From Octopus vulgaris (taxonomy: Eukaryota), in contig OX597833.1 in assembly GCA_951406725.2 (NCBI GenBank), positions 58,404,001-58,468,000 on the forward strand: 64,000 nt of DNA, written 5' to 3'. This document shows positions 40,921-60,360 of this stretch, piece after piece. The first letter of the stretch is position 1. Every line of letters begins with the position of its first letter. The notes beneath the pieces were generated by a model that did no database searches, was not told the origin of the DNA, and worked only from the letters and a program-made list of their open reading frames with translations. A program made the position numbers and the translations under genes.

Positions 40921-40971
<51 letters not shown>

Positions 40972-43900
40972 CGCCCTTTAATTCAGGGAATTCCCGGTTA
41001 AGGTTATCGATTTCAAGTAGATACATCCCCACTAGGTCCATCACTTCCGCTGAATCCGGTGAGCCCATGGTGATGTCAAATAAATTGGGTGTGTCTTTTC
41101 TAGCCCATAGTTTGTTATCAAATTCTATTAATATATATATATATCAATATATATATATATATATATATTCATTCTTTTTCACTTGTTTCAGTCATTGAAC
41201 TACAGCCATGTTGCAGTAAAGGAATAAACACAAAGGCATACACACAGATGTTTGCACACACAAACACACACACACATCTGGTTCGCCAGACCTCAGTCAA
41301 AATCGTCCAACCCATGCTAGCATGGAAAGCGGACGTTAAACAATGATGATGATGATGATGATGATGATGAATATTCTTATTCCTGCTATTTTCCTTTCTA
41401 CAAGTATGTAAGGAATTGTGAGGCACTCATCCAGTGCCAACCTCATTTCCTACAGACGTATAGAAGATTCCATAAGTTATGTAGACCCCTTGAACACAGA
41501 CAGGATTCTTAACCAAATCTATGTCCTCGACAAAAATATTGTTACCCTTTCTTCCTGCCACAAGTTTCCTCACCATTTATTGCTGTTTTCTTTTGTTTGA
41601 TATTTTTCCAGGTCCTTTTGCAAGTACACTGGCCACGAAATATGGATGTCGTAAGGTTACCATTGCTGGCAGTATCTTTGCAGCGGCTGCATTTTTTATT
41701 AGTAGTTTTTCATCCAGCATCCAGATGTTGATAGTGACCTATGGAATTCTGGGAGGTAAGTGGTGATGGGGATGGGGATGGTGGTGGTGGTGGTGGTGGT
41801 TTATATGTGTGTTTATTGTTGTTCTGTGCGTGTGTGTCTGTGTGTTTTGAAGTGATTGTGTTGTGTTTGCCTTGATGTGATTGTGTGTGTGTTGATGTGA
41901 GTGTGTGTGTGTTTTGAAGTGATTGTGTTGTGTGTGTGTGTGTTAATGTGATTGTGTGTGTGTGTGTGTGTGTTTTGAAGTGATTGTGTTGTGTGTGTGT
42001 GTGTTTGATGTGATTGTGTGTGTGTGTGTAATGATGTGATTGTGTATGTCTGTGTTTTGAAGTGATAGTGTGTGCGTGTGTGTGTGTTTTGAAGTGATTG
42101 TGTGTGCGTGTGTGTGTGTTTTGAAGTGATTGTGTTGTGTGTGTGTTGATGTGATTGTGTGTGTGTGTGTTTTGAAGTGATTGTGTGTGTGTTGATGTGA
42201 TTGTATGTGTGTTGATGTGATTGTGTGTGTCTGTGTGATTTTGTGCTTGAGGAGACCTATTGAGTGAAGTACATCAACATAAAAATCAAAATCAAATGGA
42301 AATTGTAGTTGTGGTACCCATGCCGGTGGCATGTAAAAAGCACCATCCGAACGTGGCCGATGCCAGCGCCGCCTAACTGGTGTCTGTGTCGGTGACACGT
42401 AAAAAGCACCAACCGATCGTGGACGTTTGCCAGCCTCCTCTGTTCCCTGTGCCAGTGACACGTAAAAAGCACCCACTACACTCACAGAGTGGTTGGCGTC
42501 AGGAAGGGCATCCAGCCGTAGAAACTCTATCGGATCAAGATTGGAAACTGGTGCAGCCTCCTGGCTTCCCAGACCCCGGTCGAACCGTCCAACCCATGCT
42601 AGCATGGAAAATGGACGTTAAACGATGATGATGTGTTTTGTCTGTGTATTGATGTGGTTATGTATGTGTAGCGAAGTGATTGTTCAAGGACCCAACACAT
42701 ATCCCAGTCCAGGAATTGAACTTACAACCTCATAATGCTCGAACCACTGAGCTATGCACCTTCACATATGCACGCACGCACACGCACACACACACACACA
42801 CACACACTTGTGTGTGATGGGCTTCATTCAGTTCCAGTCTATCAAAATCACTCAAAAGACTTAAGAATCATCCCAGACTTATAGCCTGACGCTTACCAAT
42901 TTGCTGCATGATGGAAACTGAACCCAAGACCAATTAGATGGGAAGCAAGCTTCTCAGCCTCCAGCCATGCCCCTACCTGTGAAATATTTAACCCTTTAGC
43001 ATTCAGACTTCTTTGTCAAATGTATTGCTTATTCATTCGCATTTTTTTCTTTCTACCTTTAACCCTCCAACGCGGCGTATAGGCCTCTTATAATTGAATT
43101 CCACATGGTTTGGAGACAAGCTTCTTAACCACACAACCATGCCTGCACCAAATTATTATATGTAATTTTTTCATGAAAAAGAAATACGGTTTTTAATTAA
43201 AGCTTTCTTTTTTTTTTCTTTTTGCAGGCATCGGATTTGGATTTATCTACCTTCCTTCAATTGTGATAATCGGGTATTGGTTTGAGAAAAAACGAGCTTT
43301 TGCTACAGGGGTTGCAGTTTGTGGAATGGGTCTCGGTACTTTTATCTTCCCACCTCTTACTGAGTACTTGCTGCAGAAGTACAACTGGCAAGACTGTGTG
43401 ATAATCATATCAGGACTGATACTCAACTGTGCTGTGTGCGGAGCCCTTTTTCGTCCGGTCCGTCCACAGACGAAGCGGATGAAACGGGGCTTCGTCGCAC
43501 GGGGCTCGATCATGCGAGCCCTCATTGAGGAGAAAAAGCGACAGCGTACCATATCTAACGGATCTCTCGACAACTGTATCATCACCAACGACAACCGTCT
43601 CATCAAATTGGATTGTATCGGCTCCAACCGTAGCAGTATTGCATCCTACTTTCAGCGGTCGAGGAGCCCACACAGTTCAAAGTGCCCCAGCAGGAGCAGC
43701 CTGCTACCACAAAACATAGTTGTCGAGTCCTTTAGGGTGGATGGCACGACTACGAAACCCATGAGCTCAAACTTGCTGAAACCCCCTGCTGTCCCAGCTA
43801 TCCACTCGATGGACATTCCTGAAAGCAACAAGCTGATCACGAACAGTGTGTCCCTTATGCCCAAAGCGAAAAGTTGTGATTCCCTCACGCCTGAGGACCC

Positions 43901-54695: not shown

Positions 54696-56210
54696 ATATG
54701 TATGTGCATATATATATATATATACACACACACAAATATATAGGGATAGATAGATAGATAGATATGTGTGTGTGTTTGCATATATATATACATGTGTGTG
54801 TGTGTGTAGTAAGTGAACAGTAGAGTTAGTAGAGTATCAGACACAATACTTTGTTGTATTTGCTTATCTCCCTTTTATGGCCTCTCAAATCTTTCCCAGA
54901 TCCAATCTGTTTCTTAAACGAGGGACATATTCATATGGCACAGAATGTTTTTTATCTCAATAGACGTCATTGATTGGTTGAAATTGTCTCTGTGGTAGGG
55001 CTCCAGGCCTGGGCCAAACAAAACCAAGACGGAGCACCTGGCATCTGGGGTATTGTTAGGGGCTTACAGACCCCTTACCAGTCAAGCAGGCAATATGACT
55101 AGTGCAACTTCCATGTTAGCATTCTGAAGACCAGTGGTGGGGAAGAATGACCAATGTCCTTGGAGAAACTCTGAGTGTCATTGCAAATCAATTAATTAAT
55201 TGGCTCGTCTATTCTGGAAGGATTTTCATGCCCAAGGATTCTTAACTTTCAGAACTTCCTCCTCTGGTTATGCTACCGAGGAGCATTGCTGGTTCAAGAT
55301 AAACTCTACAGGCACAGAAATACTGTGAGCAGAGAGCCTATCTGAGATGTACAAAGTGACAAAACCATTCTGCCTAACCTTTCATCAATGTTTGAAACAT
55401 TTCTGACTTGTGGGGTTTTGCTGAACTGCTGCCATCACATGTGGACAAAATTCAGTTACAAATAGACATTCACTTAGCATTCACTTAGCATTCACTTAGC
55501 ATTCACTTAGTATTCACTTAGCATTCACCTGCAAGTTTTAGAATGTCCGTTTTGAGCTCAGAACCTATTGCGATGCTTGTTGTTATTTAGTTCCAGTTCA
55601 GCTTTGATCAAACTGACCTATGATTAAAAGGCATTTCAGCCATGACTCTCCCATCTTTTTCTGTATGTGTAGGGAACCTAGGACTGCATTTTCCAATGTA
55701 TCTTTTTTTTTTCTAAGATGGGTGAGATTACAATTGAGGGAGATTTGACTGCTGTTTCTAGTAGGTTGTGTGACCACATAGACGTCCCCCGTTGCTTTGA
55801 GTTCAGTTTCTGTCATGTAGAATGGTGGTATTACCACCACCATTCCACAACACAGATACTGATCTCCGGTAATGCTTGTCTTGTTCTTACTACGCTCTTT
55901 GTACTTTTATTTTTTTTAGAGTCAGATTACACCGCTTGTATATGATGCCTTCATATTCTTTAGTGTAAATACAAGTAATACCTAAAACCCAGTTTTCAGC
56001 TACATGATGACAGTTGATAATAGAAAGCAAGAAGAAACCTTATAAATTTAAACCCTGTCATGGTTATTTGTCAATCAGGGGTCAGTATAAATAGGGACCA
56101 ATAAACAGAGGGGTCAGTTCAGTTGACTATAGTGAGCCCTTTTAAGATTTGAACTTATGGCTTGATTAGAAAAATAATAAATCACTATTTTCTTGCCAGT
56201 AAATCATTAA

Positions 56211-56867: not shown

Positions 56868-57800
56868 TTAAAGTGTGTACTGGGTGCATTTTGTTGTGGC
56901 AGCAGCCCTAACCAGGTGCCTTGTACTTATGCAGGATTAAATCGCTCACCTTACTCTAATGGTGTGAGAGATGACATAAGCTGGGTGTAGGGTGGGATGG
57001 TGAGAGGCATGGAAGTGTGACAGGAGGAACAGTGCTGTTAGTGAAAGAAGGTGGAAGAGAAGAGAGAGAGAGAAAATCATAGAAGATACAGTGCTGAGGA
57101 GGGTAATGACAGAGAAATAGTGATGGGAACTACATGTTTGGTGGCATTAGGGTGTTTGGTTGATGGGAGGTTGTAGAAAGTAGCGATGGTAAGAGGGAAG
57201 CGATGTGTGCCGTTGATAAGTTAATTAAAGGGAGCGAGGGAGGGAAGGATGGTGAAGTGAAAATCTCCCCTCCCGTCCCTTTCTCAAATTATTTTGATAA
57301 GGATGAGAGTTTTGTGGATGGTGACAAGAGTGAGCAGAAAGAGATCCAGTTGCTATCCTATGTCATATACAGGTGACATGGCGCAGTGAATGTAAGGGCA
57401 AATGATAGTAAAAGAGAGGAGTGGGTTTCAAGGGGGCAGAGGGGCAGTTGCGAAAGGGTGGATGACAGATTAGCAAGAGGGTGTCGTAGAGACAGATTGG
57501 TGGTGGTGGTTGGGGGTGTGTAGAGGCAGGGTGGCTGTCGTTGAGAGCGACTCGGCCTTCATCACTACCTCTGTTTTCATGTTCCCATCACCATCCATGT
57601 TCAGGAAAGAACTGCATATTGTTAATTGTCACAGCCCCTTATCTCTTTCGTGAGTCTCAGCATCTCAAGATCAGTCTTCATCACTTTGTCTCATGGCCTC
57701 CTTGGTCTCACTCTTCCCTAGTTTCCATCTACTTTGAGCACTCAGCACTTTATATATATGTATCAAATGAAATAGATGAAAAACAGGACACAAAGGATGT

Positions 57801-57895
57801 TGCGGTACATATGTTTCGGGCTTTATAGAACAATTTATTCTTACATCAATGCATAATCGATATAACAGATAGATCAAAAGACCTCATCAGCCGCA
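57801..57895 (-). ncRNA. Type I hammerhead ribozyme motif (core complete)
   Basis: Minus strand reads TGCGG-CTGATGA-GGTCTTT...AAAGCCC-GAAA-CATATG-TA^CCGCA: 5-bp stem I, CUGAUGA core, stem II with long loop, GAAA, palindromic stem III ACATATGT, GUA cleavage triplet. Confidence 0.75.
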
Positions 57896-57963
57896 TGCAA
57901 TTGCTACAATCAGTATGCATGGACAATGGTGTAGGAACAGGCTGAGACACTGTAGCAATTGCA

Positions 57964-58058
57964 TGCGGCTGAAGAGGTCTTTTGAACTATCTGTTATATC
58001 GATTATGCATTGATGTAAGAATAAGTTGTTCTATAAAGCCCGAAACATATATACCACA
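57964..58058 (+). ncRNA. Degenerate inverted copy of the same hammerhead
   Basis: TGCGG-CTGAAGA-GGTCTTT...AAAGCCC-GAAA-CATATA-TA-CCACA; two G>A changes weaken stems III and I. Confidence 0.55.
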
Positions 58059-58169
58059 ACATCGTTTGTGTCCCGTTTTTCATTTTATTTCATTTGATAC
58101 ATATATCCTATCACCTATGCTACTAGCTGGCATATACAGGTGCTTACATTTATCAAGTATTCACCCTGA

Positions 58170-58213
<44 letters not shown>

Positions 58214-58806
58214 ATGCATATATAATACTGTTGTCATTCTTACACATTATAAGCCCATACCAATGTAGTTTTTTTTTTCTCTCTTGCACATGACTTCATA
58301 TTCCTCTAGTATCTAGTTTTTGTCTCAGCCCGTTCCTACACCATTGTCCATGCATACTGATTGTACACTTCTACACTTCCTGTAGTGCAAGTCTGTCTCG
58401 TTTCTTCCCCATCTTCACAAACCCTCAGTATTCAAAGGCCACGATTTCACTCCGTGCGGCATTGCACCTCGTACATAAGCATCATAAACCCTTCCCTTCA
58501 CTCTGTCAAAGAAACCCTTTGTTATCAGCAGATGCAAAAAGCTCTTTGAAAATTTCTTCTCTCTGTCCCATTCTTACTATAGTTACTATAGTCACCTGGG
58601 TGACACAATCCATCTATCAATTCCAAAGAGATACCTGTGCACTTGAGAAAACCTTTTACACCTGTGCTCTTAATACTTACTAGACTTATTGCAGATGCTA
58701 CATATGAATTCTGTTTACACTATTAGCAGCCTGGTTGTGATCCCTTTGTATATACTGTCTACTGTGTGTGTGTATACATACATATTTACATATGAATATG
58801 TTTGTT

Positions 58807-59449: not shown

Positions 59450-60360
59450 ATTTTTACTTGACAATAATACTTGGGATTCCCTTGCACACTGGGGATGGAG
59501 ATCTGCTAAGTGGAGGGATGTGCTGAGGGGAAATGGCATGTCACAGGGGACCCCTTGCTAAGGGAACTGATGTCCAACAAGGGTTTGGTGAAGCAATCAG
59601 ACGGGCATCATGCAGTCTGTCTGATATAAATGGGAATTTCTGAGGGTGTATTTTACAAAGTGAATGTGGTTCAGTAAAGGTGCAGTGGAAGGGTCAGTTA
59701 TATATAAAGTGGGGGTGGTTAGGGTTGAATGAGGTGGGTGGTGTTGGAGAGGATTTGACAGGTGTGCTGGAAAGTAGAGAGGTTTAGCAGCTGGGTTGAT
59801 TGCAAAGGAGGGTGGTGTTGGAAAAGGGGACAGGTATGGCAGTTGGGTCAAGAGCAAAGAAGGGATCCTGCTTGCCGGGCAAAGGATGGGGGTATGGAAG
59901 AGCCTGTAGAAGGTGCAGTGGAAGGGTCAGTTATATATAAAGAGGGGTGGTTAGGGTTGAATGAGGTGGGTGGTGTTGGAGAGGATCCGACAGGTGTGTT
60001 GGAAAGTAGAGAGATTTAGCAGCTGGGTTGATTGCAAAGGAGGGTGGTGTTGGAAAAGGGGACAGGTATGGCAGTTGGGTCAAGAGCAAAGAAGGGATCC
60101 TGGTTGAGGGGCAAATGATTGGGGGTATGGAAGAGCCTGTAGATGAGTAGGTTATGTTGATTACAGGTGTGTGAAGGAGGGGGAAGGGTGGTAGGGAAGA
60201 GGGAAAGGAAAGAAGTTATAGGTGGGGCAGGTGCTGGAGGGGAGGATAGAGTTGTGGTTGACATTGTGGGCAAAGATGGGGACAGATTGGACAAGGATAG
60301 CCAGGAATTATCCACAACACGGGAAATGTTGGACTATGTGTTAAGGTTGTCGCAAGGCAA
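59450..60360 (-). mobile_element. Decayed Penelope-like element, GIY-YIG endonuclease region, with an internal 233-bp tandem duplication
   Basis: Minus-strand frameshifted translation gives GSLLCS*PNCHTCP ... PFHCT ... YIRQTA*CPSDCFTKPLLDI...SPVTCHF, which fits the PLE pattern C-x2-C...F.CT...YIGQT...RF.EH...PV..HF. Duplicated units 59678-59910 and 59911-60143. Confidence 0.6.
59678..60143. repeat. 233-bp tandem duplication
   Basis: 59678-59910 approximately equals 59911-60143. Confidence 0.9.

Follow-up and report, generated by a model that had tools for sequence, protein, structure and literature searches.

A Hydra-type Penelope-like element end with a long-stem-II hammerhead motif, inserted twice head-to-head in an octopus TA repeat, probably by twin priming

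Two hammerhead-like sequences that face each other between TA repeats, within the 64 kb of Octopus vulgaris DNA analysed here (the whole stretch is called the window below), raise the question whether they form an element of their own or are the remnant of a larger one, and how such an inverted pair comes about. We can state with good confidence that the locus represents the 3′ end of a Hydra-type Penelope-like element (PLE) inserted twice head-to-head in a TA repeat, likely by twin priming, and that it carries a hammerhead which is predicted to cut tandem transcripts of the parent element and is likely silent at this site.

Direct reading of the minus strand reveals a stem I formed by TGCGG (57895–57891) and CCGCA (57805–57801), CTGATGA at 57890–57884, GAAA at 57817–57814 and the stem III palindrome ACATATGT at 57814–57807, with the predicted cut falling between 57806 and 57805. 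The core elements CUGANGA, GAAA and UH thus stand in canonical order, and every part of the hammerhead that an earlier sequence-only reading of this DNA had described on the minus strand is in place. That reading had also noticed the head-to-head copy on the plus strand with two G>A changes, which we could locate: the change at 58051 breaks stem III together with its palindrome and the one at 58056 breaks one stem I pair. The stem II region of the minus copy comprises 66 nt (57883–57818) and contains a private G>T mismatch at 57881, which recurs in the plus copy at 57978. A type I descriptor matched only the minus copy within the window, and the window, resampled 60 times block-wise under a first-order Markov model, yielded no match. 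The Rfam models, proposed earlier as a check, did not bear the assignment out, for no hammerhead match was obtained at the locus at E values up to 1 and up to 10, likely because stem II is so long; miRNA-like Rfam matches lay on microsatellites and hairpins under their gathering scores and were rejected.

We examined stem II on an alignment of 24 sequences that were hand-picked from 79 motif-scan rows; the choice itself makes their core invariant, and this was not counted as evidence. What had been taken for a long AT-rich loop emerges from the family copies and their folding as an extension of stem II, which has 7 bp at its base, then a short second helix, and at the apex a hairpin of 10 bp. 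Pairing in this hairpin extends to 98% of the cells, and the variation at four pairs is confined to exchanges between G.U and Watson-Crick. The covariation check suggested earlier gave a divided answer: the stems are mostly paired (89.5% of cells, one stem II pair showing a GC/GU/AU series), and the covariation score did not significantly exceed that of shuffled alignments (0.094 versus 0.086; 20 of 500 shuffles). Position 10.1–11.1 holds an A.C or A.A mismatch in about half of the family (13 of 24 rows unpaired), and RNAalifold returned another structure for the same alignment, without recovering the hammerhead. The active fold lay no more than 0.5 kcal/mol above the minimum in all four family copies that were folded, as well as in a copy of a sister subfamily (L190), while four other related copies folded without the full active form. 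The spacer between CUGANGA and GAAA measures 66 nt in the window's family and 51 nt in the sister subfamily. On these models, the ribozyme is classed as a type I hammerhead for which cleavage is predicted.

The window copy itself has departed from this picture. Most family copies read CUGAAGA followed by GGGC or AGGC, and most copies of the window's subtype possess a 7-bp stem GGGCUUU/AAAGCCC; the GGUC of the window is private to its two arms among the family copies compared. The active fold of the minus arm, which uses another stem II register, was predicted 3.8 kcal/mol above the minimum, and that of the plus arm, which has lost stem III, 6.3 kcal/mol above it. Since the two hammerheads lie on opposite strands, they could not form a mutual dimer within one transcript; for an RNA of the whole locus, folding instead predicts a hairpin of about 150 bp (−263 kcal/mol) in which 6 of the 7 CUGAUGA bases are paired. 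The mismatch in stem II, the damaged plus arm and this predicted read-through hairpin together suggest that the window copy is probably silent.

Table 1. Coordinates of the insertion in the window and of hammerhead motifs from other families at genomic loci
Feature	Position	Strand	Remarks
Left arm	57752..57908	minus	Untailed, 5′-truncated PLE 3′ end; finishes in TA repeat
Type I hammerhead motif	57801..57895	minus	Core intact; descriptor scan and direct reading
Junction filler	57909..57950		41-nt inverted copy of flank 58321–58361, 97.6%
Right arm	57951..58106	+	94% identical to left arm; same 5′ truncation point
Second hammerhead copy	57964..58058	+	Damaged; sequence comparison with minus copy and folding
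PLE tail	58107..58172	+	66 nt, right arm only; matches family tail
(TA)n target repeat, right end	58172..58204		
Host flank, template of junction filler	58321..58365	+	
Other-family hammerhead motifs	L009:2816+, L021:2473+, L027:203+, L028:2659+ and 2560-, L048:271+ and 808+, L067:2523-, L070:1958-, L127:4033+, L131:7324+, L134:1545-, L138:440+		

The architecture of the insertion is summarized in Table 1. Relative to the predicted cut, the left arm spans about −102 to +48, and a TA run at 57750–57759 marks the left side. The plus arm does not stop at 58106, as had been assumed, but runs on through the family tail to about 58172 and from there into (TA)n. The two arms are separated by a 42-nt spacer that consists of the inverted flank copy plus one base, with a 4-nt microhomology at 57905–57908 and the single extra base at 57950. 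We tried to resolve 38 head-to-head junctions and succeeded for 36, among which the window is alone in having a filler that can be traced to the local flank; the remaining junctions mostly abut with short overlaps.

We then searched the genome (2.80 Gb, 227 contigs; L followed by a number labels loci taken from it) for relatives. Scoring 40 of 1231 initial candidates gave full-arm matches 92–96% identical to the window arm, and a 23-nt piece of the motif has 309 exact matches, so that the family comprises at least 309 copies; the reversed 23-nt control has none. Family copies possess variable 5′ truncation points and TA-type repeats at their ends. Four matches were considered as copies starting at the cut, of which two are truncations and one starts there, which amounts to no pile-up among few cases; as a single case, one inverted arm of L140 (the same locus as L005) begins exactly at the predicted cut with a 1-nt microhomology. 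Assembled contigs of presumed-RNA runs cover the family sequence, though strand, ends and level are not readable from contigs.

The 3′ ends of the arms carry the information on how the pairs arose. Across 95 ends, their positions are bimodal, falling at about +46 to +49 and at +116 to +126 from the cut, and the head-to-head pairs combine one arm of each kind. All 20 pairs of the first loci consist of a tailed and an untailed arm, and the rule held for 17 of 19 pairs in 40 loci retrieved later (P = 2e-4; two of these 19, L147 and L158, belong to the sister subfamily), giving 37 of 39 overall, with the exceptions of L148, in which both arms are tailed, and L149, in which both are untailed. At subfamily-diagnostic sites, the two arms of a pair match in 136 of 149 cases, compared with 49% for random arms, and pairs that are chimeric across subfamilies were not clearly seen among those compared (26 rows, one of them a second, weak match of L057). 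Four pairs (L003, L013, L159 and L161) have arms without any overlap, which join at about +50 to +70. Solo arms are likewise untailed, ending at +48, in 16 of 21 cases. A third, rarer end was observed in the minus arm of L143, which extends about 80 nt beyond the usual tail end and matches the 5′ UTR of L135 almost to the ATG.

That a tail is often present at one end only has been stated before (PMC3846280, PMC8557442). For the anole PLE PAc, PMC11167929 describes two RT start sites in vitro, cutting of both target strands and the use of uncleaved RNA. That one arm is tailed and the other untailed, with both from the same subfamily, is in keeping with twin priming at two fixed RT start sites, and pairs whose arms join without overlap are what twin priming on one RNA predicts. 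Twin priming with one start site per target strand is hence likely the simplest reading of the pairs. In this scheme, the endonuclease would cut both strands of the (TA)n target, and each 3′-OH would start reverse transcription from a fixed site of its own, one about +48 and the other about +123 past the cut, with uncleaved RNA serving as template for both. Both cDNAs would stop after 150–225 nt and, in the window, would be joined by end-joining that copies 41 nt of the nearby flank.

Alternatively, the second arm could stem from fold-back self-priming on the first cDNA, or from a second RNA bound via the palindromic stem III. In favour of this alternative, both arms in the window start from one and the same base and have a private substitution in common. 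Self-priming has been proposed for PLE inverted junctions (PMC3846280), and the TA-rich +48 end could anneal to the target, but fold-back cannot yield arms that do not overlap or pairs in which the untailed arm is the longer of the two (L003, L013, L140, L159), and solo copies, too, end at +48. As for a second RNA, the stem III self-duplex is predicted at −7.0 kcal/mol, yet no clear cross-subfamily pairs are found, although two RNAs from one source locus would look alike. We therefore regard this alternative as rather unlikely. The two start sites have a close counterpart in PAc, a Poseidon element of Anolis, to which we liken the octopus family: the accessible part of PMC11167929 reports two adjacent internal RT start sites that define the tail, cutting and extension of both strands, an AT-rich target and an uncleaved RNA template. 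PAc belongs to a different clade, its ORF starts inside the ribozyme and not about 200 nt past the cut as in octopus, and in that part of the study tail status in inverted pairs was not counted.

We next considered which element the arms derive from. Upstream of the arm, the sequence was followed across an AT-rich 3′ UTR of more than 2 kb as far as the C-terminus of a GIY-YIG endonuclease (EN) and an RT in L063 and L091. In L126, L127, L132 and L135, the order is collinear from RT and GIY-YIG through the 3′ UTR to the hammerhead arm. The longer copies attached to an RT/GIY-YIG ORF, which the sequence-only reading had advised to look for, are thus present. At the sequence level, the window copy is a doubly 5′-truncated insertion of a PLE several kb long. 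A sister subfamily contains copies of the form pLTR-ORF-pLTR, each of whose repeats holds a hammerhead (L203 and L205; repeats 99.6% identical, units of 4759 and 4684 nt), and partial tandems or pseudo-LTRs with the hammerhead inside are seen in L203, L205 and L207. These findings agree with the earlier assignment, in which the type I hammerhead is PLE-derived, its stem III is palindromic and of the dimer type, and the layout is that of inverted pseudo-LTRs. The predicted cut lies 192–197 nt before the ATG in the sister subfamily and about 203 nt before it in the window's family; the tail of the insertion accordingly corresponds to the first part of the 5′ UTR in the tandem unit that follows, and in L135 it precedes the ORF. 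In the parent RNA, the ribozyme would adopt a type I fold in which stem II is extended, two copies may assist each other by pairing through their palindromic stem III, and the predicted cut about 200 nt upstream of the ORF start would free unit-length RNAs from tandem transcripts.

It has to be weighed against this that the young subfamily of the window might be non-autonomous, ORF-less or ORF-dead in the manner of a retrozyme, and mobilised in trans by a related Hydra-type element. Loci with an ORF have arms only 79–85% identical to the window (83–85% in L126, L127, L132 and L135), their ORFs contain stops or frameshifts, all ORFs seen in the subfamilies nearer the window are broken, and among the loci examined none combines an ORF with an arm above 85% identity to the window. 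The sole intact ORF seen belongs to the sister subfamily, and bioRxiv 10.64898/2026.07.22.740005 proposes animal retrozymes as non-autonomous PLE derivatives. However, L094, whose arm is 92.7% identical to the window, carries at least 2.4 kb of the 3′ UTR found in RT+EN copies (it overlaps the UTR of the RT+EN-bearing L091 at 81–89%), and L091 itself possesses, beside RT sequence, a tail 98% identical to that of the window. Moreover, the first 100 listed motif matches include no short tandem arrays, with 9 head-to-head and 2 direct pairs. We hold this possibility to be unlikely. Metazoan non-LTR retrozymes, as described in PMC7229834 and in the same preprint, share the type I hammerhead, the dimer-type stem III and the AT-richness, but are head-to-tail repeats of 170–400 nt without an ORF, whereas the octopus element is an inverted, truncated end of a coding element. 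A placement in that class was rejected, as the arms link to RT/EN and the pairs are mostly head-to-head.

The coding region permits a motif-based clade call for the parent. L206 (1578–4103) contains an intact sister-subfamily ORF of 842 codons stop-to-stop with RT and GIY-YIG, which is 68% identical to the RT piece and 77% identical to the EN piece of L091. By reading of the translation, the sister ORF contains RRIRW, DKT, YRDD, CxCX5C, CxxC and CxH and is devoid of CCHH. The DKT motif is present in L205 and L206 and replaced by DKI in the broken L129, L135 and L136, and RW is followed by A (RRIRWA) rather than K; among 47 full-length database relatives, DKT occurs in 41, RWK in 29 and the linker in 42. 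Pfam returned no match for four ORF fragments of the family and found GIY-YIG on the relative P0056, and a PDB sequence search with L206 gave nothing useful. A relative from Argonauta that is labelled as a GATA zinc finger protein is probably misannotated.

Section 11 of PMC8557442 defines the Hydra clade by DKT in place of DKG, RWK, a CxCX5C linker, CxxC plus CxH, the lack of CCHH, (TA)n targets and a length generally below 3 kb. With Hydra-1_Obim and the other EN+ PLEs of this clade, as presented in that paper, the octopus family shares the single ORF with RT and C-terminal GIY-YIG, the DKT, CxCX5C, CxxC and CxH motifs, the absence of CCHH, the insertion into (TA)n, the sense type I hammerhead near the 3′ end and inverted 5′-truncated copies with an optional tail at one end. 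It differs in RW being followed by A instead of K, in a tail of about 75 nt compared to 30–40 nt, in its long 3′ UTR and Asn-rich linker, and in its length, which exceeds the typical <3 kb with 4.7–4.8 kb measured for the sister units and about 5.5 kb estimated for the window's family. With these deviations, the parent fits a Hydra-clade PLE on its motifs. The Asn-rich linker comprises about 200 residues between RT thumb and endonuclease (L091:5630–6325, L135, L129, L093) and resembles the N-rich inserts reported in rotifer Penelopes (PMC3846280). Other PLEs lie nearby: a thumb plus GIY-YIG fragment on the minus strand of L055 (395–1300), head-to-head with a family copy, was rejected as parent because it is antisense and looks like another PLE, and a further Hydra-type family with an RT about 35% identical is nested in or beside family copies (L095:4318–6226, L133, L136), where no hammerhead core was found within 800 nt 3′ of its stop.

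We further asked whether the hammerhead core has been maintained. Checked on a BLAST collection made without a motif filter, the core of the family is intact in 72 of 77 arms. In 76 arms, 3 core substitutions were observed where 21.5 were expected after exclusion of CpG and subfamily-diagnostic columns. Shared core alleles are depleted (1 versus 6.5 expected, P = 0.011), and for singleton changes depletion is unclear (3 versus 6.4, P = 0.12). As shared alleles are depleted and singletons not clearly so, the counts suggest that source lineages, and not inserted copies, are under selection. Within pairs, 3 core differences face 9.5 expected (P = 0.015), a depletion that is no longer significant once CpG columns are excluded (3 versus 6.8, P = 0.095), so that selection on inserted copies did not reach significance.

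This last comparison and the 156-bp inverted arms flanked by TA could be held to favour a fold-back or MITE-like mini-element of fixed structure, with terminal inverted repeats, a TA target duplication and a role as host ribozyme device, but such an element is very improbable, given that arm lengths, 5′ ends and junctions vary freely between loci, the ends are asymmetric, a fixed interior is lacking, the within-pair depletion is lost without CpG columns and the locus is predicted to fold into an inhibitory hairpin. The defined non-coding mini-element of the sequence-only reading is accordingly not supported, also because the sequence continues upstream into GIY-YIG and RT.

Long stem II regions are not confined to this family. 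The 674 kb of locus sequence contain 18 further hammerhead matches from other families, some of them near-duplicates, 12 of which possess a palindromic stem III of eight different sequences; eight resamplings of the 674 kb gave 0–2 matches and no palindrome. The recurrence of palindromes in other families supports the dimer-type stem III described in PMC3088659 and PMC4209133. Their stem II regions of 25–60 nt fold as hairpins. Separately, a hammerhead of the L028/L138 type with a degenerate core lies directly 3′ of another Hydra-type ORF in L093.

The PLE hammerheads presented in PMC4209133 share with the octopus family the type I fold, a helix I of 4–5 bp, a palindromic helix III suited to dimer folding, a helix II of about 7 bp whose foot often holds an unpaired base, and the arrangement as opposite-strand pairs 100–700 bp apart. 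They differ from it in stem II, which in octopus is about 50 nt longer and ends in the apical 10-bp hairpin. Counted by eye, spacers do not exceed about 26 nt in the Hydra part of File S2 in PMC8557442 (26 rows; 23 nt and a different sequence in Hydra-1_oBim), compared to 51–66 nt here; the only precedent in the tables compared is PLE-X1 of spike moss, whose loop II of about 54 nt is flagged as deviating in the same file. It is tempting, if somewhat doubtful, to extend these observations to the Hydra-type PLEs of the genome as a whole: several unrelated families may carry overlooked long-stem-II hammerheads (25–66 nt, eight palindromes) that Rfam models and short-spacer descriptors miss, with cores under selection in lineages that transpose and with cleavage or stem III dimerisation required in vivo, even though dispensable in vitro for PAc, and in a reaction peculiar to PLEs a dimeric RT might prime each strand from its own fixed site.

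Judged from its sequence, the window locus is a Hydra-type PLE end of a new family in the textbook inverted layout, and as such a decayed fragment. The family widens the size range of natural PLE hammerheads and exposes a blind spot of current models, and the long stem II and the tail asymmetry are the parts worth following. The asymmetry counts, the core conservation and the sister subfamily with its intact ORF bear on how PLEs build inverted structures, and family and sister also bear on whether PLE mobility needs the ribozyme. The one-end tail was known before; the tail count and the priming mechanism are inferences of the present analysis. We found no paper on long-stem-II hammerheads in cephalopod PLEs, although Repbase/Dfam or supplements may name the family, and none among papers outside subscription that proposes twin priming for PLE inverted ends; the searched text parts and supplement of an octopus repeat annotation (PMC13282606) mention neither hammerhead nor Hydra. 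Elsewhere in the window, a 233-nt direct repeat (95–100% identity) and a short array of an 11-nt unit lie at 59677–60143 and 55456–55539, and a short Hydra-type RT fragment lies between TA repeats on the minus strand at 40967–41122.
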